Positions 2,011 through 31,693 of a stretch of DNA of 32,525 bases are shown here, in pieces. Below the pieces are notes generated by a model. It was not told where the DNA came from, made no database searches, and was given only the letters and a program-made list of their open reading frames with translations. Made by a program: the position numbers and the translations under genes. Source of the stretch: a virus (taxonomy: Duplodnaviria; Heunggongvirae; Uroviricota; Caudoviricetes); the IMG/VR virus record IMGVR_UViG_651053023_000008; one strand, given 5' to 3'. Each line of letters opens with the position of its first letter. The first letter of the stretch is position 1.

Positions 2011-2165
2011 CGCATCATTTCAAGTACAGCTTCAAAAATGCTTCAAAAACGGTAACAACCAGGCTTTCAGCAAGTGATGTGTGTCAAAAATAATCATCAC
2101 TGTTTGGGTATCTTACATATGTAATTACCTGGAGTGAAGTTTATGTCTTAGCTATTACCTGGTTG

Positions 2166-9103: not shown

Positions 9104-9632
9104 ATTAATTCATGTCGCCCGTCGGGAATTGCAACTTGACGATGACACTTACCGCGCCTTTCTGGTGCAGTGCACGGGCAAAACCAGTTGCCGCGAGCTG
9201 TCCGTTGCACAACTGGAACGGGTGCTCGATGCCATGAAAGAGCGCGGTTTTAAGAAGCAGAAAAAACATCCCCGCCGTCGCTTTAAGGGGCATGTCACAC
9301 CACGCGAGAAGATTTACAAAATCTGGCAGCAGATGTTTCTTGATGGTTTCGTCTCCGATATCAGCGACGCCGCGCTGGACAAATACGTTGAACGCCTGAC
9401 GGCCAGACGTAATGGCGGTCAGGGTGTTTCCACGCTGGCCTGGTGTCACGGGGAATCGTTGCAGGTTGTGCTCGAAACGCTCAAACAGTGGCACATGCGC
9501 TGCATCCGTGAAGCCTTTGCCCGACATGGTGTGCCTTTACCTGTAAGCCCATCCGGGCGGGAACTGCGCGGCTATGATGCACTGACCAGTGCATATGCCC
9601 GCGCACGAAACAGCGGGAGAATTGCTGTATGA
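9081..9632 (+). CDS. gemA: GemA-like protein (Mu gp16 family)
   Basis: Internal ATG 9081 with an AAGGAG ribosome-binding site; 183 aa; position immediately upstream of mor; N-terminal LIHVARRELQLDDDTYRAFL motif. Confidence 0.65.
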   Translation: MSRTSLIKLIHVARRELQLDDDTYRAFLVQCTGKTSCRELSVAQLERVLDAMKERGFKKQKKHPRRRFKGHVTPREKIYKIWQQMFLDGFVSDISDAALDKYVERLTARRNGGQGVSTLAWCHGESLQVVLETLKQWHMRCIREAFARHGVPLPVSPSGRELRGYDALTSAYARARNSGRIAV

Positions 9633-10078
9633 AACAGATGAAAGAGCAGGATTTGTTCGAAGACCTTCGGGACGACAGCGTTCTGGAATATCTTCATGAT
9701 TACCAGGAAAACACCGCTTATCCGGCGTTACTTTCTGAACTGAACGCACTGCTGCGTAAAGAGCTGGCCCGGATTGGCGCAGACCCTGCCCATTCCCTTG
9801 AGCTGGTTGTGGCGATTTGTCGCCATATCGGCGGGATGCAGGTTTATGTTCCGAGGGGGAATATTCTGGAGAATCTTGTCCGGGATATGCGTATCTGGCG
9901 TGATTTTAACGGCCATAATATTCCTGAACTGGTTCAGCGTTACGGGGTGACGTATAAAACCGTCTACAAGGCCATCAAACGGATGCGACGTCTGGAGCGC
10001 AATAAATACCAGCCGGATTTGTTTTACCTCTCCCCGAACCTGCCTCACCCCGTTCGTCGTCCGCCACGACGCCCTTAA
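9629..10078 (+). CDS. mor: Mor/C-family transcriptional activator
   Basis: 149 aa with a Mor-family C-terminal HTH (VYVPRG...IWRDFNG.N..EL..RYGV....VYKAIKRMRR), located at the end of the early operon and followed by a terminator. Confidence 0.8.
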   Translation: MKQMKEQDLFEDLRDDSVLEYLHDYQENTAYPALLSELNALLRKELARIGADPAHSLELVVAICRHIGGMQVYVPRGNILENLVRDMRIWRDFNGHNIPELVQRYGVTYKTVYKAIKRMRRLERNKYQPDLFYLSPNLPHPVRRPPRRP

Positions 10079-10084
10079 TCAATG

Positions 10085-10108
10085 AAGCCGGTAAATCCGG
10101 CTTTTTTT
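10085..10108 (+). terminator. rho-independent terminator after mor (stem AGCCGG, loop TAAAT, stem CCGGCT, T7)
   Basis: Perfect 6-bp stem hairpin followed by seven T, 7 nt after the mor stop. Confidence 0.7.
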
Positions 10109-10122
10109 ATGCCTCCGGCACC

Positions 10123-13231: not shown

Positions 13232-13813
13232 ATGGAAAATGAACAACGCCCCACCCGTGGCCGTCTTTCCAAAGTGGATTTACTCCCGGACAGCATCCGG
13301 GAGCAGTTGCATCAGATGCTGCGGGAAAAGCGGCACACGCAGGAAGAAATCCGCGAAGCCATCAACGCCCTGATTGACGAACACAACCTGCCGGAAGAGA
13401 TGCAGTTAAGCCGGACGGGCTTAAACCGCTATGCCATCCGCATGGAAAAAGTCGGGGCAAAAATCCGTGCCTCCCGCGAAATGGCCGAAGTCTGGGCGGC
13501 AAAGCTGGGTTCCGCGCCGACGTCAGACGTCGGCAAACTGCTGATGGAGTTTGTAAAAACGCTGGCTTTTGAAACGTCCATGTCGATGGCAGAAGACGAC
13601 AAGCCCGTTGCACCGAAGGCGCTGGGGCAACTGGCGCTGGTTGCCCAGCGTCTGGAAGCGGCAGCCATGACCAGCCATAAACGCGAGAAAGCGATCCGTG
13701 ATGCGTTTGCGCAGGAGATGGCAGAGAAAACCGAAGAACTGGTCAGAACGGGCGGTCTGTCAGGCGGTGCGGCTGACACCATCAAACGAGACATTCTGGG
13801 GATTAGCGTATGA
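13232..13813 (+). CDS. Mu gp27-like protein (putative terminase small subunit)
   Basis: ATG 13232 with an AGGAGG ribosome-binding site at 13220-13225; position immediately upstream of the large terminase. Confidence 0.6.
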   Translation: MENEQRPTRGRLSKVDLLPDSIREQLHQMLREKRHTQEEIREAINALIDEHNLPEEMQLSRTGLNRYAIRMEKVGAKIRASREMAEVWAAKLGSAPTSDVGKLLMEFVKTLAFETSMSMAEDDKPVAPKALGQLALVAQRLEAAAMTSHKREKAIRDAFAQEMAEKTEELVRTGGLSGGAADTIKRDILGISV

Positions 13814-15345
13814 CACAAATGGATACGTTCAGTGAATATGATGTTCTGCTGCCGTATCAGAAACGCTGGGTGGCGGATGATGCCGACCTGAAAATTGCCG
13901 AGAAATCCCGCCGTACCGGTTTAACCTGGGCGGAAGCGGCGGATGCGGCACTGACGGCATCACTGAAGAAGGAAGACGGCGGGCGCGATCACTTTTATAT
14001 CGGTTCGAATAAGGAGATGGCCCGCGAATTTATCGACGCCGTGGCGATGTGGGCGAAAGCGTTTAATGCGGCAGCGGAAGAAATCTGCGAGGAAGTGATC
14101 ACCGACGAAGACAAGGACATTCTGACGTTCGTCGTGTACTTCGCCAGCGGTTTTAAGGTCAAGGCATTGTCCAGCAACCCGAGCAACATTCGCGGGATGC
14201 AGGGGAATGTCACCATCGACGAGGCCGCGTTCCATGAAAAACTGGACGAGCTGCTGAAGGCTGTGCTGCCGCTGAAAACATGGGGCGGCAAAATTCGCCT
14301 TATTTCCACCCATGACGGCGTGGACAACCTGTTTAACCAGCTGATTCAGGAAAGCCGCGCGGGCAAAAAAGATTACAGCATTCACACCATCACGCTGGAT
14401 GACGCCTGCAATGACGGGCTGTACCGGCGTATCTGTCAGGTGCGCGGCATGGTGTGGTCACCGGAAGCCGAAGCGGAATGGAAAGAAGGTCTGCTGCGAA
14501 ATACCGCCACCCGCGAAGACGCACTGGAAGAATATTACTGCGTCCCGAAAAACGGCGGCGGCACGTATATCCCCCGCTCACTGCGTGAACGTGCGGCCTG
14601 TGGCACCGGGAAAGTGTTGCGCTTTACCGGCACACCGGAATTTAACGCACTGACGGAAAGCCAGCGCCGGGCAGATATCCGGGAATGGCTGGAAACAGTG
14701 GTGCGCCCTGAACTGGAAAAACTCCCGAAGAACCTGCGCCACTGTCTGGGGGAAGACTTTGCGCGTTCGGGTGACCTGACCGTACTGGCCCCGGTGACGG
14801 TGAACGATGACACCACCCGCGAGGTGCCGTTTCTGGTTGAGCTTGGCAATGTGCCGTTTAAACAGCAGGAGCAGGTGCTGTTCTGGCTTTGCGATCGTCT
14901 GCCCCGCCGTGACGGCATCAAAATGGATGCGCGGGGGAATGGTCAGTATCTGGCAGAACAGGCGGCGGAGCGGTACGGCGACGAAGTGGAACAGGTGATG
15001 CTGTCCGTGGCGTTCTACCGCGAAAACATGCCCCGTTTCCGTGCGGCGTTTGAAGATGATGAGCTGATCCTTCCGAAGCATGAAGACGTGATCAATGACC
15101 TCGGGGCCATTCAGTTACTGCGTGGCGTTCCCGGCATTGATGATTCACGAACCAGAGGCAGCGACGGTCACAAACGTCACGGCGACGCCGCTGTGGCCAT
15201 TTTCCTGGGCTTCCTTGCCAGCAAGGATGACTGCCACCGTTACGAGCTGCACCGCCTGAACCGCCCGGCGAAACCGGAAGAACGCAACGCGCGCCGCCAG
15301 ATGAAGCTGACGCGCGGCCTGAAAAATGAGGGAGGTTTACTGTGA
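13810..15345 (+). CDS. terminase large subunit (Mu gp28-like)
   Basis: 511 aa; overlapping start and stop with neighbours; position between gp27-like and portal. Confidence 0.8.
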   Translation: MTQMDTFSEYDVLLPYQKRWVADDADLKIAEKSRRTGLTWAEAADAALTASLKKEDGGRDHFYIGSNKEMAREFIDAVAMWAKAFNAAAEEICEEVITDEDKDILTFVVYFASGFKVKALSSNPSNIRGMQGNVTIDEAAFHEKLDELLKAVLPLKTWGGKIRLISTHDGVDNLFNQLIQESRAGKKDYSIHTITLDDACNDGLYRRICQVRGMVWSPEAEAEWKEGLLRNTATREDALEEYYCVPKNGGGTYIPRSLRERAACGTGKVLRFTGTPEFNALTESQRRADIREWLETVVRPELEKLPKNLRHCLGEDFARSGDLTVLAPVTVNDDTTREVPFLVELGNVPFKQQEQVLFWLCDRLPRRDGIKMDARGNGQYLAEQAAERYGDEVEQVMLSVAFYRENMPRFRAAFEDDELILPKHEDVINDLGAIQLLRGVPGIDDSRTRGSDGHKRHGDAAVAIFLGFLASKDDCHRYELHRLNRPAKPEERNARRQMKLTRGLKNEGGLL

Positions 15346-16913
15346 ACCTGAAACAACTGGCCGGGGCCGTTCGCCGTCTGCTGAACCCGGCAACCGGTGA
15401 GGAAGACACGCTGAAAAAAGAGGCGCTCAACGAAGCACAGGCACGTCCGCGTCATGCCAGTGTGCGTTCGGCCTCGCCGGGCGTCAGCATTGCTTCCGGG
15501 CTGAATCCCGGCAGGCTGGCAGGCATTCTGCGCAATGCTGCCGACGGCACCACGCGTGACTTTTTTATCCTTGCTGAAGAGATGGAAGAACGCGATTTGC
15601 ATTACGCCTCGGTGCTGCGCACCCGCAAGCTGACGGTGGCGGGTATCGAACCGGTGGTGGTGGCCGCCAGTGATGACGATGCTGACGTGCAGCTGGCGGA
15701 CGCCATCCGTGCACTGATGGAAGCACCGCAAATCCCTGAGCTGATGTTTGATCTGCTCGACGGGCTGGGAAAAGGCGTGGCGGTCTGTGAAATTTTGTGG
15801 AACACCCGCAACAACCACTGGGTGCCCCGTGATTATGAGTGGGTTGATCCCCGTTTTCTGAAAGCCGAAAAACCCACGCTGCGCCAGTTCCGCCTGCTGA
15901 CTGACGATGAACCGGTGGATGGCGTACCGCTGACACCGGGAAAATTCATTGTTCACCAGCCGCGCCTGAAATCCGGTCTGCCGCTGCGTAACGGTCTGGC
16001 CCGTCTGGTGGCGGTGATGTACATGCTGAAATCCTTTACCGTGCGTGACTGGTGGGCATTCGCGGAAAAGTTCGGCATTCCGGTTACGGTGGGGAAATAC
16101 GGTCCCAACGCCACGGAGGAGCAAATCCGCGTGCTGATTGACGCGATTGCGTCCATTGCCTCGGATGCCGGGTGTGCCATTCCGCAGTCCATGCAACTGG
16201 AGATGCAGGAAACTGCCAGCCGGAATAACGGCGGCGCACTGTTCTGTGAAATGGCGGAATGGTGTGATGCGCAAATCAGTAAGGCCGTGCTGGGGCAGAC
16301 CATGACCACGGATAACGGCAGTTCGCGCTCACAGGCGGACGTGCACAATCAGGTGCGCATGGACATTGTGCGCTGGGACGCGCGGCAGCTGGCTAACACG
16401 CTGAATGAATTTCTGGTGCGGCCCTACATCGAGGCCAACTACGGGCCACAGGCGCACTACCCCCGTGTTGTTCTGCGTATCAGTGAAGCCGAAGATCTGA
16501 AGGCGCTGACAGATGCTCTGGTGCCGCTGATTGACCGGGGGATGCGGGTTCAGGAATCGGAGCTGCGGGACCGGTTCGGCCTGGCTGAACCGGACGACGG
16601 GGCTGATGTTCTGCATCCGGTTTCTGCCGGAATGTCAGGTGATATGGCGATGAACCGCGAGCGCGTCGCCCTGAACCGTGAACACTCCGACGAACTGGCG
16701 CTGATGGTGGATGATGCCCTGCGTGACTGGCAGAAAACCGGCGAGGTGTTCACGAACCCGGTGCTGACACTGGCGCAGGAATGCGACAGTTTTGATGACT
16801 TTCTGAAACGCCTGCCTGAGCTTCAGGAAACGCTGAACGCGGACGACTTTGCCCTGCAACTGGCGGAGGTGTGCTTTAAGGCCCGTGCGCTGGGGGACAC
16901 TGCTCATGCGTGA
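15342..16913 (+). CDS. H: portal protein (Mu gp29 / H-like)
   Basis: 523-aa ORF following the terminase; Mu-like portal family by sequence pattern and position. Confidence 0.8.
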   Translation: MNLKQLAGAVRRLLNPATGEEDTLKKEALNEAQARPRHASVRSASPGVSIASGLNPGRLAGILRNAADGTTRDFFILAEEMEERDLHYASVLRTRKLTVAGIEPVVVAASDDDADVQLADAIRALMEAPQIPELMFDLLDGLGKGVAVCEILWNTRNNHWVPRDYEWVDPRFLKAEKPTLRQFRLLTDDEPVDGVPLTPGKFIVHQPRLKSGLPLRNGLARLVAVMYMLKSFTVRDWWAFAEKFGIPVTVGKYGPNATEEQIRVLIDAIASIASDAGCAIPQSMQLEMQETASRNNGGALFCEMAEWCDAQISKAVLGQTMTTDNGSSRSQADVHNQVRMDIVRWDARQLANTLNEFLVRPYIEANYGPQAHYPRVVLRISEAEDLKALTDALVPLIDRGMRVQESELRDRFGLAEPDDGADVLHPVSAGMSGDMAMNRERVALNREHSDELALMVDDALRDWQKTGEVFTNPVLTLAQECDSFDDFLKRLPELQETLNADDFALQLAEVCFKARALGDTAHA

Positions 16914-17670
16914 AACCTTCATCCCGAAAGAGGCGCTGGCGTGGCTGAAGGCGAAGAAGCTGCGCCCCGGTTTTGATTACCGGGATGTATGGCGGGAAGA
17001 ACACCGGAACAGCTTCACCGTGGCAAAAATGCTGCAACTGGATTTGTTGTCGGATGTGAAAGCCCTTGTGGAAGACGCCCTGCAAAGCGGGCAGACGTTC
17101 AGCGAGTTCCGGGAGATGCTGCAACCGTTGCTGATAAAACGCGGATGGTGGGGCGTACAGGAGATGGATGATCCGCTGACGGGTGAAACCCGCACCGTGC
17201 AACTGGGCAGCGACCGCCGCCTCCGCACGATTTTTGACACCAACATGCGCACCGCCCGCGCGGCGGGCCAGTGGGAACGCATTCAGCGGACAAAGCGGGC
17301 CATGCCGTATCTGATTTATGAGCTGGGGCCATCCCGTGAGCACCGGGCGGAGCATGTGAAATGGGCGCGTCTGTGTCTGCCGGTAGATCATCCGTTCTGG
17401 CAGACACATTTTGCCCCTAACGGCTGGGGCTGCAAATGCACCATCCGTCAGGTCAGCCGTGGTGAGTATGCGCAACTGGCGGCACAGGGCACCATTCACA
17501 CCGAAGCGCCGGAAATCAGAACTGTCCGCTGGGTGAACAAACGTACGGGCGAAGAGGAAGAGGTGCCGGAAGGGATTGATCCGGGCTGGAACTACAATCC
17601 CGGCATAAACCGTGAGCAGGAGCTGGCGCGCCAGCTGGCGACCAAACAGGCCCGTTTTGACAGTGAGTAG
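16906..17670 (+). CDS. F: head morphogenesis protein, Mu F family
   Basis: Internal ATG 16906 overlapping the portal stop; 254 aa. Confidence 0.7.
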   Translation: MRETFIPKEALAWLKAKKLRPGFDYRDVWREEHRNSFTVAKMLQLDLLSDVKALVEDALQSGQTFSEFREMLQPLLIKRGWWGVQEMDDPLTGETRTVQLGSDRRLRTIFDTNMRTARAAGQWERIQRTKRAMPYLIYELGPSREHRAEHVKWARLCLPVDHPFWQTHFAPNGWGCKCTIRQVSRGEYAQLAAQGTIHTEAPEIRTVRWVNKRTGEEEEVPEGIDPGWNYNPGINREQELARQLATKQARFDSE

Positions 17671-17812
17671 CCCTCCCGCCGTAAATCCCCCTGAAACGCA
17701 TCAGAAACGCGTTTTTTATTCTGATGGCGTGAATGTGCATTCTGACGTTTTTGAAGATGCTGTGGCGTTTTTGAAGGGGGTTTTGAAGGGGGTGTTTCCC
17801 CGTTTTCAGTGA

Positions 17813-17835
17813 AGCCGGTAAATCCGGCTTTTTTT
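17813..17835 (+). terminator. rho-independent terminator (second copy of the element found after mor)
   Basis: Stem AGCCGG 17813-17818, loop TAAAT, stem CCGGCT 17824-17829, T-run 17829-17835. Confidence 0.7.
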
Positions 17836-17884
17836 CTGCCTTCCGCATACTGACCGTCGGTAACCCCAAACGACGGAGACTGAC

Positions 17885-18847
17885 ATGCAACCGGAACTGC
17901 TGGCGCTGTGTTTTTCCCTGCCAGAACCCATCCCTGAGCTGACACCTGCTCAACTGCCGGAATGGCTTGAACTCGTCCCTGCGGGTGAGTTCACCGGGCG
18001 CGATGGCCGGACGTGGATTAACCGCAATCCGCATGAGGTGGTCACCCGCTCGTCCGACATCAAAATTCCGGTGGACATTGAACACGCCACCGAAATTAAA
18101 GGGCAACGCGGTGATGAAGCCCCGGCGTATGGCTGGGTGGAAGAACTGCGCGTGACGGACAGCGGCACCATTGAAGGCCGTGTTGTCTGGAGCGAGTACG
18201 CCCGGTGGATGCTGAGCGAACGCCGCTACCGCTATTACAGCCCGGCGTTTTTCTTTGACGCAGACGGTGTGGTGACGCGCCTGTCCAGCGTCGGGCTGAC
18301 CAACAAACCTAACCTGGACTTTCCTGCACTGAATACGGAGAAAAACCCGATGACAGTACCTGTGCAAATCACCGGCCTGCTTGGGCTGGCTGAATCTGCC
18401 ACGGTGGACGATACCGTGGCCGCCATTAAACAACTTCAGGAGAACGAACAGGTGGCGCTGAACCGCGCACAGACACCTGACCTGACGAAGTTTGTGCCGG
18501 TGGAAACCCACAATCTGGCACTGAACCGTGCCGAAACCGCAGAACAACGCCTTCAGCAACTGGAAGAGAAGGAAGCAGAAGCGCTTGTGGATGCGGCCAT
18601 CGAAGCCGGAAAAGTGGCCCCGGCAAACCGTGACATGTTCCTTGCCACCTGCCGCACGGAAGAAGGCCGCAAACAATTTGCGGAATACACCAAAGGTGCA
18701 CAGCCGCTGGTGAACAACGACAAGCCCAGCCAGGGCAAGGATAAACCCGCGCAGACACTGACCGACGCCGAACTGGCGATGTGCCACAGCATGGGTATTA
18801 CCGGGGAAGAGTTCCTCGCCGCTAAACCTAAACAGGAGAATAACTGA
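17885..18847 (+). CDS. I: head maturation protease and scaffold (Mu I family)
   Basis: 320 aa; N-terminal protease-like domain, C-terminal Ala/Glu/Gln-rich helical scaffold-like region; directly upstream of the major head gene. Confidence 0.8.
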   Translation: MQPELLALCFSLPEPIPELTPAQLPEWLELVPAGEFTGRDGRTWINRNPHEVVTRSSDIKIPVDIEHATEIKGQRGDEAPAYGWVEELRVTDSGTIEGRVVWSEYARWMLSERRYRYYSPAFFFDADGVVTRLSSVGLTNKPNLDFPALNTEKNPMTVPVQITGLLGLAESATVDDTVAAIKQLQENEQVALNRAQTPDLTKFVPVETHNLALNRAETAEQRLQQLEEKEAEALVDAAIEAGKVAPANRDMFLATCRTEEGRKQFAEYTKGAQPLVNNDKPSQGKDKPAQTLTDAELAMCHSMGITGEEFLAAKPKQENN

Positions 18848-19749
18848 TGGGAGCAGTCACTTCCGAAGTCCTTCACGCGCTGACCACCTGTCTGAGCGCC
18901 GCTTATACCCGTGGTCTGAGTGGTGTCACCCCACAATGGCAGCGCATCGCCTCTGAAATCCCGAGTTCGTCCGCTTCCAATACCTACGGCTGGATGAAAG
19001 ATTTACCGGAGATTAAGGAATGGGTCAGCGCCCGTCAGATGGCAACGCTGGACGGTTATGGTTACACCCTTGCGAACAAAACCTGGGAAAGTTCGATCCG
19101 CGTTAAACGCGAACACATTGAAGACGATCAGATTGGTCAGTACAGCATTATCGCTGAACGCTATGGCCGCCAGACGTCGGAGTTCCCGGACAAGCTGTGT
19201 TACCCCCTGCTGTGTGCCGGGTTTAACACCCTGTGTTTTGACGGTCAGAACTTCTTTGATGAAGACCACCCGCTGGGCGACGGCACCTGCAGCAACGTTG
19301 TCGGCACCCCGGCATCAGACCAGGGAGAACCGTGGTTCCTGATTGATGATTCTCAGGTACTGAAACCCATCATCTGGCAGACGCGACGCGCCTTTAAGTT
19401 TGAAGCCCTGGATGATCTGAACAGCGAGCACACCTTCAAGAATAACGAGTTCCTTTACGGGGTGGACGGTCGCTGCAATGCGGGCTTCGGCTTCTGGCAG
19501 ACCGCCGTCGGTTCCCGTGCGGCACTGACAGCGGAGAACTACGAGAAGGCCAGCAATCTGCTGCTGGGTATGAAGGCCACCAACGGTGAACCGCTGGGCA
19601 TCCGCCCGACCACCCTTGTGGTGGGGCCGAAAAACCGTGCAGCCGCGAAGCGCATCATTGACGCCATGCTGGTTAACGGCGGCGATTCCAACATCTGGTA
19701 CAAGGATGTGGACATCGTGGTCAGCCCGTTCATCACCACCCCGGCATAA
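18847..19749 (+). CDS. T: major head subunit (Mu T family)
   Basis: 300 aa, ATGA-coupled to I; matches the Mu-like major capsid protein family in length and position. Confidence 0.8.
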   Translation: MGAVTSEVLHALTTCLSAAYTRGLSGVTPQWQRIASEIPSSSASNTYGWMKDLPEIKEWVSARQMATLDGYGYTLANKTWESSIRVKREHIEDDQIGQYSIIAERYGRQTSEFPDKLCYPLLCAGFNTLCFDGQNFFDEDHPLGDGTCSNVVGTPASDQGEPWFLIDDSQVLKPIIWQTRRAFKFEALDDLNSEHTFKNNEFLYGVDGRCNAGFGFWQTAVGSRAALTAENYEKASNLLLGMKATNGEPLGIRPTTLVVGPKNRAAAKRIIDAMLVNGGDSNIWYKDVDIVVSPFITTPA

Positions 19750-19832
19750 CCCGTCATCCGTAATCTGTTGTAACCCGCAATGACTGGCTGATTAGCTGTA
19801 TCGGCACCAACCTGTCACCGCACCCGGCGTGG

Positions 19833-20435: not shown

Positions 20436-20783
20436 ATGGCAAAAATTCTTGGCATGGCGACCATTCGCGTGAATGGCCGCGAAATTAAAACCGAGGGGAA
20501 ATCCACGCTGAATCCGGGCGGCTTCAGTCGCACCCAGCATATGGGCGGCGGCAAGGTCTGGGGTATCTCCAGCAAGATGGCCTCGCCGTCCATCAAGGTG
20601 ACCATTGCGGCGGCAGCGGATATGGACGTGATTGAAATCAGCAGCTGGGAAGACGTCACGGTGATGTTCTACGGCGACAACGGCCTGAACTACATGATGA
20701 CGGGTCCGCCACGGATAACCCGGCGGAGCTGGACGAGGATTCCGGCACCATCAGTGCGAACTTTATCGGTGAAAAATGCGTGA
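20436..20783 (+). CDS. tail tube protein (Mu M-like)
   Basis: 115 aa directly upstream of the chaperone and tape-measure genes. An alternative 3' end in another frame would stop at 20791. Confidence 0.55.
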   Translation: MAKILGMATIRVNGREIKTEGKSTLNPGGFSRTQHMGGGKVWGISSKMASPSIKVTIAAAADMDVIEISSWEDVTVMFYGDNGLNYMMTGPPRITRRSWTRIPAPSVRTLSVKNA

Positions 20784-20792
20784 AGGTGTGAC

Positions 20793-21288
20793 ATGGCTGA
20801 AATGGAATTTGAACTGAAACACGGGCTTCTGACCGGCAAAGGCACGGCAGATGAAACCCTGCATAAAACCGTGAAGCTGCGCGAACTGACCGCCAGTGAT
20901 GTGATTGATGCACAACTGGCCGCAGAACGCGTCGTCATGGGCGGGAACGGAAAGGCGGTGGCCTACTGCTCTGAAGTGCTGATGGGGCTGGAGATGATGC
21001 GCCGTCAGGTTGCGGCCATCGGCAGCATTCCCGGCCCGCTGGACATGAAACAGCTGCGAATGCTCCACCCGGCAGACCTTGAGCTTATCAGCACGAAAGC
21101 CGCTGCGCTGGATGACATGCTTGAGGAGGTGGCAACGCGGGGGCGAACTGATGCCGCTGGCGGCGGCACTGATGAACCTGCTGGTTAACCTGTCCCAGCG
21201 ATTCAGCATTCAGTACCTGGAACAGCTGCCCCTGCGGCAGCTGTTCCGCCTGATAAAGCAACTGGAGAAACAGCATGGCAACAGGTAA
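20793..21288 (+). CDS. tail assembly chaperone with a putative programmed frameshift (short product 20793-21188; extended product to 21288)
   Basis: Two overlapping frames; the second frame has no independent ribosome-binding site and ends at the tape-measure start. G5 run at 21139-21143. Confidence 0.6.
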
Positions 21289-28082: not shown

Positions 28083-28970
28083 ATGTTTCATGTGGATAAT
28101 CCGACGGGTGTGCCAGTGATGCCACCTGTCGCGGCTGAATTAAGCAAAACAACGCTTTATTTTACCGAAGGCGGGAACGGTATTCCGCCCACTTATCCGG
28201 GGCCGGACTGGTTTAATATTATTCAGTCTGAACTGCTGGAAATTCTCCGGCAGGCAAATATCAAACCGGATAAAAACACAACCGACCAGATTATGACAGC
28301 GCTGAAAAAAACTGTTTATTACGAACAGTGGTTCAGCCGGAGCTATTGCCGGATTAACCGGTCAGAATAATACGTTCCCGTATTTTACGGCGAAGACACA
28401 ATGGCATTAACGCCGCTCAGTGCTTTTGTGCGCGGTATTCTCGGGAAAAACACAGCCGGTGAAATTATCGACGCGCTTTTATTACGTGACACGGTAAATA
28501 AAGCTAATAGTGCTGTACCGAATACCCGCAGGGTCAACGGCATGGCTCTGTCTTCGGATATCACCATCAGCAACATCAGCGGCAACGCCGGAACGGCAAC
28601 CCGACTTCAGACGGCCCGCAGGATTAACAATGTGCTGTTTGATGGCAGCCGCGATATCACGATTTCTGCGGGAATGTCACAAACTGAAGGTGACAACCGT
28701 TACCAGCAAAAAAACACGGCGTCAAAAGCCGGTAATGGCTGGTTTAAGGACACGTCCACCGGGGTGATTATTCAGTGGGGGTATCTCGGCAATGCCAGTG
28801 CCGGGCTGACGTTTCCGATATCATTTCCGTCAGCATGTACCAGCATCACTATTACCAACGCATACACCCGTGCTGATTACTCTATTTCCCTGAAATCGTT
28901 ATCAGCAGCAGGTGCGACATTCAACAGCGAGAATAACGGCGTTATGTACTGGACAGCGATAGGGTATTAA
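28083..28970 (+). pseudogene. tail fibre gene (S-like) interrupted by two compensating indels (extra A in the A7 run 28305-28311; likely missing G at 28389-28390)
   Basis: Conserved fibre N-terminus (MFHVDNPTGVPVMPPVAAELSKTTLYFTEGGNGIPP). The fibre motif GLTGQNNTFPYFT is encoded in frame +1 between the two ORFs; the C-terminal ORF 28401..28970 continues with MALTPLSAFVRGILGK. Confidence 0.55.
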
Positions 28971-31570: not shown

Positions 31571-31693
31571 ATAATCATTTTGTATAGTTTATGACGATCG
31601 ATAACATCATATCGATCGTCGGTTTGCATCATATGTGATTAAATACCCCCAGCCCTCCGGGCGGTCATGTCTGGTTATTACACAGGGGGAATC
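31571..31693 (+). promoter_or_regulatory. com and mom promoter region with Dam GATC sites (31596-31599, 31614-31617) inside 7-bp inverted repeats
   Basis: GATCGAT ... ATCGATC arrangement directly upstream of com, consistent with the methylation-sensitive upstream region of the Mu mom operon. Confidence 0.55.

Follow-up and report, generated by a model that had tools for sequence, protein, structure and literature searches.

[quoted passage not shown] Few substitutes for this site have been found, and what makes a gyrase site strong has been left open in the Mu field. Oram and Pato reportedly found in 2004 that the SGS of a close Mu relative alone could substitute for that of Mu, and resemblance in sequence is therefore no guarantee of strong-site function. 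In the Mu genome record, the 196-bp gap between genes G and I holds the gyrase cut (17879/17880), a terminator (17908-17953) and the late promoter PI (17977-18043). The 133-bp SGS fragment of Topo-Seq corresponds to Mu 17812-17944, and the repeats of the right arm stand at +11, +32 and +45 from the cut. [quoted passage not shown]

The second system of relevance is the pair of related Mu activators, Mor and C. The middle promoter Pm (Mu 9163-9233) drives an operon that ends in C, and PI is C-dependent. Mor binds a dyad in Pm that spans -51 to -36, and neither Mor nor C activates the promoters of the other in Mu (PMC4287176).

Here we compare with these systems the spacer between genes F and I of a Mu-like Escherichia coli prophage, contained in IMG/VR record IMGVR_UViG_651053023_000008 (32,525 nucleotides, hereafter the window); the prophage is defective, for reasons other than the spacer. 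Homology, conservation, position and the co-occurrence of its elements make it probable that the spacer is a central cis-acting control region, which would combine a Mu-type SGS with a Mor-activated late promoter PI for the head genes.

The F-I spacer and the position of G

The spacer extends from the stop codon of F to the start codon of I (17671-17884, 214 bp). To its left, the plus-strand gene F (16906-17670, stop TAG at 17668-17670) encodes a gp30-like minor head or head morphogenesis protein of 254 aa, which matches Pfam Phage_Mu_F (E = 1.2e-14) and PHROG 220 and shares 98.8% identity with the CDS that RefSeq annotates in the ETEC1732 prophage. To its right, the plus-strand gene I (17885-18847, ATG at 17885), first of the operon served by the spacer, encodes a head maturation protease or scaffold that matches Pfam Mu-like_Pro (E = 2.8e-44) and PHROG 328; its Shine-Dalgarno sequence, GGAG, can be read at 17875-17878 on the plus strand and is kept in relatives as CGGA[GC]. 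Every feature coordinate given for this region in the initial annotation was verified in the sequence.

That a small RNA or small protein is encoded in the spacer has negligible probability. Its fold as a whole has a z of -2.15 relative to shuffled sequences, and ORFs of 66 aa (plus strand) and 117 aa (minus strand) overlap with it, but Rfam returned only sub-threshold matches for the spacer (sroD at 22 bits against a gathering score of 50), neither ORF matches Pfam or PHROG, and conservation tracks DNA motifs rather than a reading frame or paired structure.

The initial annotation had remarked that no G gene lies between F and I, which is borne out and extends to the entire window, where no G-family gene is found; it had offered as explanations a deletion scar or a regulatory region for the I operon. 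For the spacer to be a scar, an ancestor must have had G between F and I as in Mu, the spacer being the leftover after loss of G. Indeed, G occupies that place in Mu, D108, SfMu and SE11-type prophages, and a short match, CATCAGAAA plus AAACGCGT, ties a palindrome in the spacer to the last codons of Mu G. The short DNA matches, however, have E values of 0.15-0.6, tblastn with three G proteins found nothing credible in the spacer, close and mid-distance relatives all lack G at this place, and the spacer aligns with the G-I intergenic DNA of Mu and not with G. Moreover, comparison with Mu-like phages, plaque-isolated ones included, revealed the same F-gap-I layout, the very finding that the initial annotation had named as making the spacer an ordinary intergenic region. 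The order TerL-portal-F-gap-I-T occurs in 45 of 5426 complete E. coli genomes and in relatives from Klebsiella, Brenneria, Shewanella and Vibrio, and a portal gene, a short F, a non-coding gap of 209-343 bp and I follow one another in the plaque-isolated Vibrio phages martha 12B12 and 1.028.O, in Klebsiella phage Kp4866-3, in a Brenneria prophage and in the 45 E. coli prophages. The I proteins of this deep G-less clade are 44-60% identical to that of the window (a search of contigs with the I protein gave a single locus, in Brenneria), and every member retains a G homologue after gp36, adjoining the tail genes. The G-less F-I arrangement is the normal one for a whole clade of Mu-like myoviruses.

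That the window has no G anywhere is due to a private deletion of 2.9 kb downstream of T, separate from the spacer. Its junction at 19766-19779 carries the microhomology AACCCGCA and is present in none of the 5426 complete E. coli genomes; lost were the G homologue, the gp35-like, gp36, gp37-like and gp38 genes, and sheath residues 1-276. A scar of G loss is thus a very improbable origin for the spacer of the window, whereas the regulatory half of the original suggestion is upheld by the signals found there.

Four of the relatives, martha 12B12, 1.028.O, Shewanella MuM16-2 and Kp4866-3, share with the lineage of the window the gene order, a non-coding gap at the genome centre (233-343 bp, longer than in the window), a triple TTTAAAC-type repeat, a hairpin or box upstream of I, and the G homologue after gp36. 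In the marine phages two hairpins lie between the repeats and I, and the box of MuM16-2, AGAGCAACCG..., differs in sequence from that of the window. MuM16-2 has been reported to be apparently inactive (PMC8541194).

A probable counterpart of the Mu strong gyrase site

As in Mu, the proposed site is near-central in the genome and directly precedes the late promoter of I, with three T-rich repeats at matching spacing to the right of the presumed cut, followed by a weak hairpin with GTTTT. The phased repeats, which occupy 17747-17797 on the plus strand, are GTTTTTGAAG (17747), GTTTTTGAAG (17767) and GTTTTGAAG (17780), and align with Mu TTTTTTAAAA, ATTTTTAAA and TATTTAAC; successive copies are 20 and 13 bp apart in the window and 21 and 13 bp apart in Mu. 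The repeat sequence differs between the two, being TTTTTGAAG(GGGG) in the window and TTTTTAAA in Mu. Repeated motifs had already been noticed in the spacer, and copies are indeed found at 17747 and 17767 (GTTTTTGAAG) and at 17779 (GGTTTTGAAG); nowhere else in the window does TTT[GA]AA[CGA] cluster three times on one strand as it does at 17747-17797.

The spacer can be aligned to the Mu G-I gap over its length, both directly and through the Mu-type SE11 prophage, which is 84% identical to Mu over 1 kb. BLAST against 28 Gb matched 46 bp of the spacer to the G-I gap of the SE11 prophage at 93.5% identity (E = 7e-8). With an nhmmer profile made from the G-less relatives alone, the top match in the whole Mu genome is the SGS arm (E = 9e-6), and the reverse profile, made from Mu, SE11 and the window, matched Kp4866-3 (4e-10), relative L033 (2e-7) and Brenneria (9e-5). 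Because this same profile ranked the Shewanella site third only (E = 0.66) and missed the site of Vibrio phage martha, the link of the SGS repeats to the marine phages is one of visual alignment. When both the window and SE11 were left out of the profile, the top match was the common E. coli variant (E = 0.0026), and the window itself came second at E = 0.27, because an extra G shifts its register.

This extra G bears on what had been described as a perfect 12-bp tandem duplication, which lies within the repeat region. The sequence TTTTGAAGGGGG is present twice in tandem at 17769-17780 and 17781-17792 with a 100% match, such a repeat arose in 0 of 5000 dinucleotide shuffles, and the window has no other. 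In each of the 16 distinct close relatives, however, the sequence is TTTTGAA-GGGG TTTTGAAGGGGG, the window having one extra G in the G-run. Between the window and a relative of 97-99% identity there are 13 indels, 11 of them of 1 nt and nearly all in homopolymer runs, the extra G among them. The window also has frameshifted tail genes. Since this G has no counterpart in close relatives, the perfection of the repeat reflects a private slip or a sequencing error and not a recent duplication; the repeat is present as described, but the duplication proper reduces to a one-base homopolymer difference.

The location of the gap is central, at 45% of the intact 35,259-bp ETEC1732 prophage, which represents the lineage of the window, compared with 48.7% (about 49%) for the Mu site; for Kp4866-3, martha 12B12, MuM16-2 and 1.028.O the figure runs from about 48% to slightly above 50%. 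Central location and homology to the Mu right arm, both expected of a Mu-type SGS, are found in the spacer. In register with Mu, where the cut lies 11 bp before the first repeat, the gyrase cleavage region is predicted at 17732-17742, about 11 bp to the left of where the T-rich repeats begin, inside a near-symmetric GAAT-GTGC-ATTC. By homology, the DNA from about 17671 to 17800 would be this lineage's version of the SGS, cut by gyrase near 17736, and the DNA to the right, with its phased T-rich and G-rich repeats, would wrap around the GyrA C-terminal domain. As has been shown in Mu, processive supercoiling from the near-central site may then pair the prophage ends so that the transpososome can assemble once the prophage is induced.

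The repeats are conserved in enteric relatives, including those with about 60% I-protein identity, and inspection by eye shows a like triplet in the phages of Vibrio and Shewanella. In 17 distinct spacer sequences of close relatives the repeat cores are invariant except for the extra G of the window, and the bases between them vary. Conservation of TTT[GA]AA[CG] as sequence, beyond AT/GC phasing, together with the location of the repeats 60-110 bp upstream of the predicted I start, could suggest a purely transcriptional region in which the GAAG repeats and the tandem pair bind a Mor/C-type or other regulator of the I operon, with no gyrase site. We regard this as unlikely: the activator-type dyad of the spacer is a separate element that is shared with lys, upstream of which there are no GAAG repeats; the homologous Mu DNA is the mapped right arm of the SGS; and it is strand transfer, not transcription, that suffers when Mu lacks its SGS (PMC10052514).

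Fourier analysis of AT/GC periodicity at about 10.5-11 bp, a sign of anisotropic bendability in the arm, is suggestive only: the repeat region of the window lies about 3.4 sd above the mean and ranks 5-15 among the non-overlapping peaks in the window, compared with ranks of 3-12 for the Mu SGS arm, depending on the window size of the analysis; at the sites of Kp4866-3 and MuM16-2 the periodicity is unremarkable. Matching of strong and weak bases in 133-bp windows to the gyrase consensus, as taken from the supplement of Sutormin et al. (2019), gave the Mu SGS a score of 79 against a genome maximum of 92, and because this known site, the positive control, failed, the proxy is uninformative either way. 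A periodicity that is not outstanding, in a prophage that is defective, would also suit a spacer that holds a terminator and a promoter only, where the SGS-like repeats are a non-functional relic, the hairpin at 17811-17831 is the terminator of the lys operon and its resemblance to a Mor site is incidental. Against a relic stand the invariance of the repeat cores among close relatives and their retention at about 60% I-protein identity.

Many Mu-like prophages and marine Mu-like phages have unannotated F-I gaps, to which the label of a putative central gyrase site with late promoter can be given. These gaps also provide a natural series of diverged right arms (a TTTRAAS triplet with spacings of about 21 and about 12 bp) that bears on the question of what makes a gyrase site strong.

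It is conceivable, though doubtful, that the heptamer TTT[GA]AA[CG] is a sequence-specific site, read by a phage or host protein or by a sequence-reading surface of GyrA, and so more than a passive signal for gyrase wrapping. About 200 bp inside the left end, at 204-223 in Mu and at 2030-2050 in this prophage, the heptamer occurs as two inverted copies, 11 bp apart, which could help to bring the centre together with the L end; in published work, the SGS and the L end were both needed for the Mu prophage domain. The left-end copies are not independent evidence, because the ends of Mu and of the window lineage are homologous and the copies are absent from Kp4866-3.

A proposed Mor-type late promoter upstream of I

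To the right of the repeats, at 17806-17841 on the plus strand, lies an element that the initial annotation had called a terminator hairpin. The sequence GAAGCCGGTAAATCCGGCTTT followed by a T-run, at 17811-17831, folds at -12.8 kcal/mol (z = -3.9) and does have the form of a rho-independent terminator, with a GC-rich stem and a U-tract, as do its counterparts in close relatives and in Mu Pm. What that description missed is its likely identity as a Mor-box, that is, a binding site for an activator. The dyad AAGCCGG-TAAAT-CCGGCTT (17812-17830), followed by a run of seven T (17829-17835), is near-identical to the middle promoter Pm of Mu, AAAGCCGGTTAATCCGGCTTTTTTT; the two dyads, AAGCCGGTAAATCCGGCTT in the window and AAGCCGGTTAATCCGGCTT in Mu Pm, each followed by T7, agree in 17 of 19 bases, and both differences fall inside the 5-bp spacer (TAAAT in the window, TTAAT in Mu Pm). 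TransTermHP calls the Mor dyad of Mu Pm a terminator as well, so that a Mor dyad doubling as a terminator is not peculiar to the window.

Exactly two copies of the Mor-box are present in the window, against an expectation of 0, one ahead of lys and one ahead of I. The second, the proposed Plys (10083-10114, plus strand), is identical in 31 of 32 bases and stands a short distance before the lysis gene, which is annotated to start at ATG 10165. Immediately before it, at 9629-10078 on the plus strand, is the only Mor/C-family gene found, a Mor orthologue that in a phmmer search of PDB matched Mu Mor (1RR7) at E = 4.2e-52 and Mu C at E = 1.4e-13; in Mu, too, Mor is encoded just upstream of a copy of the box. 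An intact relative has one annotated Mor-family CDS (Pfam Mor), and this phage has no C gene. The Mor orthologue is presumed to act as activator on both boxes. No further Mor-box turned up in the intact relative ahead of its tail genes or of com/mom. On the minus strand, 28348-28362 resembles a Mor-box, but it lacks a T-run and falls inside an ORF, and the resemblance was put down to chance.

With a diversity of 0.0155, compared with 0.075 at third codon positions, the Mor-box is the most constrained part of the spacer. Its left half is kept in all enteric relatives that were aligned, including relatives L033-L040, with about 60% I-protein identity, in which the right arm with its pairing and the T-run have been lost. 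An RNA terminator would not give conservation of the left half without pairing, which counts against a plain terminator. Kp4866-3 carries a box exactly of the Mu type at L010 8309, presumably upstream of lys, and a diverged box before I, and Shewanella MuM16-2 carries AGAGCAACCGNCGTTA, which differs from the Mor-box sequence, both before lys and before I. The hairpin and T7 of the window would by themselves suit an intrinsic terminator, as required if the spacer held a terminator and a promoter only; but with the same 32 bp standing before lys, a match to the experimentally defined Mor dyad of Mu Pm and retention of the left half where pairing and T-run are gone, that reading is improbable, and we retain the Mor-activated promoter.

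In the proposed promoter, PI, a candidate -10 hexamer, CATACT (17846-17851, plus strand), aligns with CAAACT of Mu PI and with CACACT or GACACT of relatives. Likewise, a hexamer whose second base is A and whose sixth is T stands 10 nt from the T7 run in Mu Pm (TATCCT), in Plys of the window (CACCAT) and in Plys of Kp4866-3 (CAAAAT). No sigma-70 -35/-10 pair was found at PI, and Mu Pm also lacks a -35 hexamer. Transcription is predicted, by homology, to start somewhere in 17858-17865. With CATACT as the -10 element, the dyad is centred about 37 bp ahead of the expected start, as compared with the reported -43.5 in Mu Pm; therefore either the -10 assignment or the geometry differs from Mu Pm. 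The locus shows the characters of a Pm-type promoter, namely the dyad match, an inferred -10 without a -35, an encoded activator and a second copy of the box at lys. Mu PI is similar in its location relative to I, in its -10 region (CGCA[A/T]ACTGAC) and in having an activator site over the -35 region; this site is of the Mor type in the window and of the C type in Mu, with ...GCATAACCCC....

Taken together, the segment 17806-17884 may act as PI, at which the Mor orthologue would bind AAGCCGG-N5-CCGGCTT and recruit sigma-70 RNA polymerase to a promoter without a -35 and with a weak -10, CATACT. Transcription from roughly 17858-17865 would then read I, T and the downstream genes. The Mor-box and T7, which in the E. 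coli lineage have the form of an intrinsic terminator, and the hairpin at 17788-17809 probably end the lys-to-F transcript just before PI.

In Mu the box drives the middle operon, whereas in the window the boxes front the late operons lys and I. Since the same box precedes lys, a phage of this type, lacking C, would run a two-step cascade, from early genes to Mor to late genes. Pm-type Mor-boxes placed directly before lys and I suggest a simpler cascade in the C-less relatives, and C-less Mu-like phages may more generally follow a two-tier scheme in which a single Mor-box both terminates one operon and serves as activator site for the following one.

Other elements of the spacer

The left arm of the proposed gyrase site is non-coding in the window, whereas that of Mu falls within the 3' end of G. 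In the window this presumed arm contains a lineage-specific palindrome or stem-loop (17696-17730, plus strand), and the 8-bp stem recorded in the initial annotation, CATCAGAA-N12-TTCTGATG, is present with its halves at 17699-17706 and 17719-17726. A palindrome of this size is unexceptional: about 6% of shuffled spacers (293 of 5000) contain one, and the window has about 15 comparable loci. It folds at -11.5 kcal/mol (z = -2.2) and is not kept in the relatives whose I proteins are about 60% identical. The element, for which no specific function is supported, could form a 3' stem-loop on the F mRNA.

The weak hairpin to the right of the repeats, GGGGG-TGTT-TCCCC (17788-17801) followed by GTTTTCAG (to 17809, plus strand), folds at -9.4 kcal/mol, and its stem is partly broken in several close relatives. 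It occupies the place of the predicted lys-operon terminator of Mu and aligns with Mu AATCCCGTTTTAT, on the 3' side of the terminator that TransTermHP calls at Mu 17908-17953.

Prophage organization and the absence of G

The window contains a Mu-like transposable prophage, whose left end (TGTATTGATTCAC... at 1827) is 85% identical to Mu attL and whose genes follow a Mu-like order, namely repressor, ner, A, B, ..., gam, gp16, Mor, lys, ..., TerL (13810-15345), portal (15342-16913), F (16906-17670), a 214-bp gap, I (17885-18847), the major head gene T (18847-19749), tail genes and com/mom. The F-I region is 92-99% identical in 45 of 5426 complete E. coli genomes. The best-annotated relative, the prophage of E. 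coli ETEC1732 (35,259 bp, L001 4916-40174), lies within flhA, flanked by a 5-bp target duplication (GCTAT). The flagellar export gene flhA is split in ETEC1732 by this insertion.

Relative to the ETEC1732 prophage, to which it is 97-99% identical, the window has 13 indels, of which 11 are of a single nucleotide (window 10160, 10993, 12489, 17776, 20704, 21035, 24544, 24660, 26646, 28305 and 28388), nearly all within homopolymer runs. Several of them frameshift conserved genes, namely those for the tail tube (20704), a P-like baseplate protein (24544/24660) and gp47/J (26646). The pattern resembles either sequencing error in homopolymers or decay at an early stage. A 165-aa hypothetical gene that lies between Mor and the lys Mor-box of ETEC1732 is also missing from the window (window 9999-10073 versus L001 12633-13176), and the Mor C-terminus differs (149 aa in the window, 133 aa in ETEC1732).

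The initial annotation found no G gene between F and I, and indeed none is present there or elsewhere in the window. Its suggestion that the F-I spacer is a deletion scar does not hold, because related phages, isolates among them, show the same gap, the very outcome that the initial annotation had set as refuting it, and a tblastn search of the spacer yields no trace of G; loss of G from this position is thus very unlikely. ETEC1732 has the same F-I gap (20772-20984), and its prophage encodes, after its gp36 homologue, a Phage_tail_S protein (PF05069, PHROG 26) of the Mu G family, with 24% identity to Mu G (E = 2e-5) and 58% to the Shewanella counterpart. The arrangement portal, short F, 209-343 bp gap, I, T, ..., gp36, G, gp37, gp38, sheath is found in Vibrio phages martha 12B12 and 1.028.O, both isolates (1.028.O being derived from a virus concentrate of seawater), in Klebsiella phage Kp4866-3 and in Shewanella prophage MuM16-2, which its authors consider apparently inactive (PMC8541194). 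A Brenneria prophage matches over the part identified in it, from portal through short F and gap to I. F itself is 254-265 aa in this clade (window 16906-17670) versus 439 aa in Mu (Mu 16073-17392), so the difference from Mu at the F-I locus exceeds the position of G alone.

The window lacks G altogether because of a separate 2.9-kb deletion directly after T, with 8-bp microhomology AACCCGCA at its junction (window 19766-19779; L001 22880-25809 missing), which took the gp35-like, gp36 (adaptor), G-like tail-completion, gp37-like and gp38 genes together with sheath codons 1-276. This junction occurs in none of 5426 complete E. coli genomes, and the window prophage is thus a private defective variant.

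A putative gyrase site in the F-I gap

The strong gyrase site (SGS) and the Mor/C-dependent promoters are well-studied elements of Mu, and Oram and Pato reportedly examined, in 2004, the SGS-like sites of some Mu-like prophages. Slightly past this textbook picture are a putative gyrase site in the G-less clade, a specific TTTRAAS triplet conserved among enteric relatives, of which marine phages show a similar form on visual inspection, and predicted Pm-type Mor-boxes directly before the late operons of phages without C.

A search with the spacer alone returned a 46-bp match of 93.5% (window 17748-17793) to three E. coli genomes without this prophage; in E. coli SE11 it falls inside the 200-bp G-I gap of a true Mu-type prophage, which in this region shares 84% identity with phage Mu across 1 kb. 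Within the 196-bp G-I gap, the Mu GenBank record places the gyrase cut at 17879/17880, predicts a terminator at 17908-17953 and locates the late promoter PI at 17977-18043; the window spacer can be aligned with this gap over its length. To validate Topo-Seq, Sutormin et al. (2019, supplement) used a 133-bp "Mu SGS" fragment, which corresponds to Mu 17812-17944. The right arm of the Mu SGS carries repeats TTTTTTAAAA, ATTTTTAAA and TATTTAAC at +11, +32 and +45 from the cut; the window carries GTTTTTGAAG at 17747, GTTTTTGAAG at 17767 and GTTTTGAAG at 17780, spaced by 20 and 13 bp as compared to 21 and 13 in Mu. By register with Mu, gyrase is predicted to cut near 17736.

A similar triplet is found in SE11, Kp4866-3, Brenneria, the IMG/VR relatives L033-L040, MuM16-2 and martha. 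Leave-out profiles back these matches statistically. A profile built from G-less relatives only has the Mu SGS arm as its top match in the entire Mu genome (E = 9e-6), and one built from Mu, SE11 and the window matches Kp4866-3 (4e-10), L033 (2e-7) and Brenneria (9e-5). With the latter profile, the Shewanella site comes only third (E = 0.66) and the Vibrio martha site goes undetected, so that the triplet of the marine phages rests on visual alignment. With neither window nor SE11 in the profile, the common E. coli variant comes top (E = 0.0026) and the window only second (E = 0.27), because an extra G in the window breaks the repeat register.

That G also bears on the spacer features described in the initial annotation, all of which are present at the positions given there. 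The 12-bp tandem pair, the sole such pair in the window and seen in 0 of 5000 shuffles, is non-random, and its perfection is restricted to the window: the locus reads TTTTGAA-GGGG TTTTGAAGGGGG in 16 of 16 distinct close relatives from IMG/VR and in ETEC1732. The extra G is one of the 11 single-nucleotide indels (17776), and the GGGG of the relatives, together with the homopolymer indels elsewhere, marks it as a private slip or a sequencing error rather than the product of a recent duplication. The 8-bp palindrome, matched in about 6% of shuffles and at about 15 comparable loci in the window, is not unusual.

The Mu SGS requires a central position; its right arm, whose repeat motifs bend DNA around GyrA, is essential and its left arm dispensable, and when the site is lost the prophage ends synapse late, with normal transcription (PMC10052514, PMC3820752). 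The F-I gap, where measurable, lies at 45% to just over 50% of the genome (Mu, 48.7%), and the left portion of the spacer, which is variable and contains the lineage-specific palindrome, is consistent with such a dispensable arm.

The SGS heptamer also occurs twice in inverted orientation (CTTCAAA, 11 bp apart), about 200 bp inward of the left end of both the prophage (window 2030-2050, minus strand) and Mu (204-223), and within the window same-strand clusters of the heptamer occur only there and in the F-I spacer. Since these left ends share homology and no such cluster exists in Kp4866-3, the pair may be an inherited coincidence.

Putative Mor-boxes before lys and I

A 32-bp sequence at 17810-17841 has a second copy, differing at one base, at 10083-10114, shortly before the lysis gene; a T7 run is present in both copies. 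Its core, AAGCCGG-TAAAT-CCGGCTT followed by T7, is almost that of the Mu middle promoter Pm (AAAGCCGG-TTAAT-CCGGCTTTTTTT), where a Mor dimer on the dyad from -51 to -36 activates a promoter without a -35 hexamer (PMC4287176). The window encodes a close Mor orthologue (9629-10078; E = 4e-52 against PDB 1RR7, only 1e-13 against Mu C); a second Mor/C family member is absent from the window, and there is no C gene. In Kp4866-3, an exact Mu-type box is located at L010 8309, presumably upstream of lys, and a diverged box before I, and MuM16-2 has a different 22-nt element before both lys and I. In L033-L040 (about 60% I-protein identity) the left half of the box, AGTGAAGCCGGTTAATCC, is kept and the right arm and T-run are lost, which argues for selection on a DNA site rather than on an RNA hairpin. 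Among close relatives, diversity of the box-to-ATG stretch is 0.0155 versus 0.075 at F and I third codon positions.

A hexamer whose second base is A and whose sixth is T lies 10 nt past the T7 run in Mu Pm (TATCCT), window PI (CATACT, 17846-17851), window Plys (CACCAT) and Kp4866-3 Plys (CAAAAT), and the CATACT of the window aligns with CAAACT of Mu PI. The I transcript is predicted to start near 17864-17865 by the reported -43.5 geometry, or near 17858 by the hexamer. The annotated start of the lysis gene is ATG 10165, with the Mor-box copy directly upstream; ATG 10123 lies upstream of the predicted transcription start, and the longer reading frame that it opens is probably not used. Elsewhere, ACCGGTTAATCCGGC (28348-28362, minus strand) agrees with the core of the Mu Pm dyad at 14 of 15 bases. 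Located within an ORF of the tail region and not followed by a T-run, it is probably a chance occurrence.

From the observed homology, conservation, position and co-occurrence of the spacer elements, we infer that the spacer is cleaved by gyrase and bound by Mor, and that transcripts start and end there. Gyrase would bind the central site and supercoil processively, helping the prophage ends to synapse at induction; Mor from the early transcript would bind the boxes before lys and I, switching on the late genes directly, and each box would also halt read-through from the operon upstream. The initial view of the spacer as a regulatory region for the I operon is supported, with the roles of its elements reassigned: the repeats belong to the candidate gyrase site, and the hairpin is the putative Mor-box.

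Predicted termination and the com/mom region

TransTermHP calls the Mor dyad of Mu's own Pm a terminator, so the dual appearance of the Mor-box is a family trait. In the window lineage the box hairpin has a predicted -12.8 kcal/mol and is followed by U7, and a weaker hairpin at 17788-17809 can be aligned with the 3' side of the terminator predicted in Mu; together they plausibly end the lys-to-F transcript. Upstream of com/mom, a GATC-rich palindrome (31580-31625) with 11-bp arms GACGATCGATA...TATCGATCGTC and no Mor-box is homologous to the GATC cluster of the Mu mom regulatory region.
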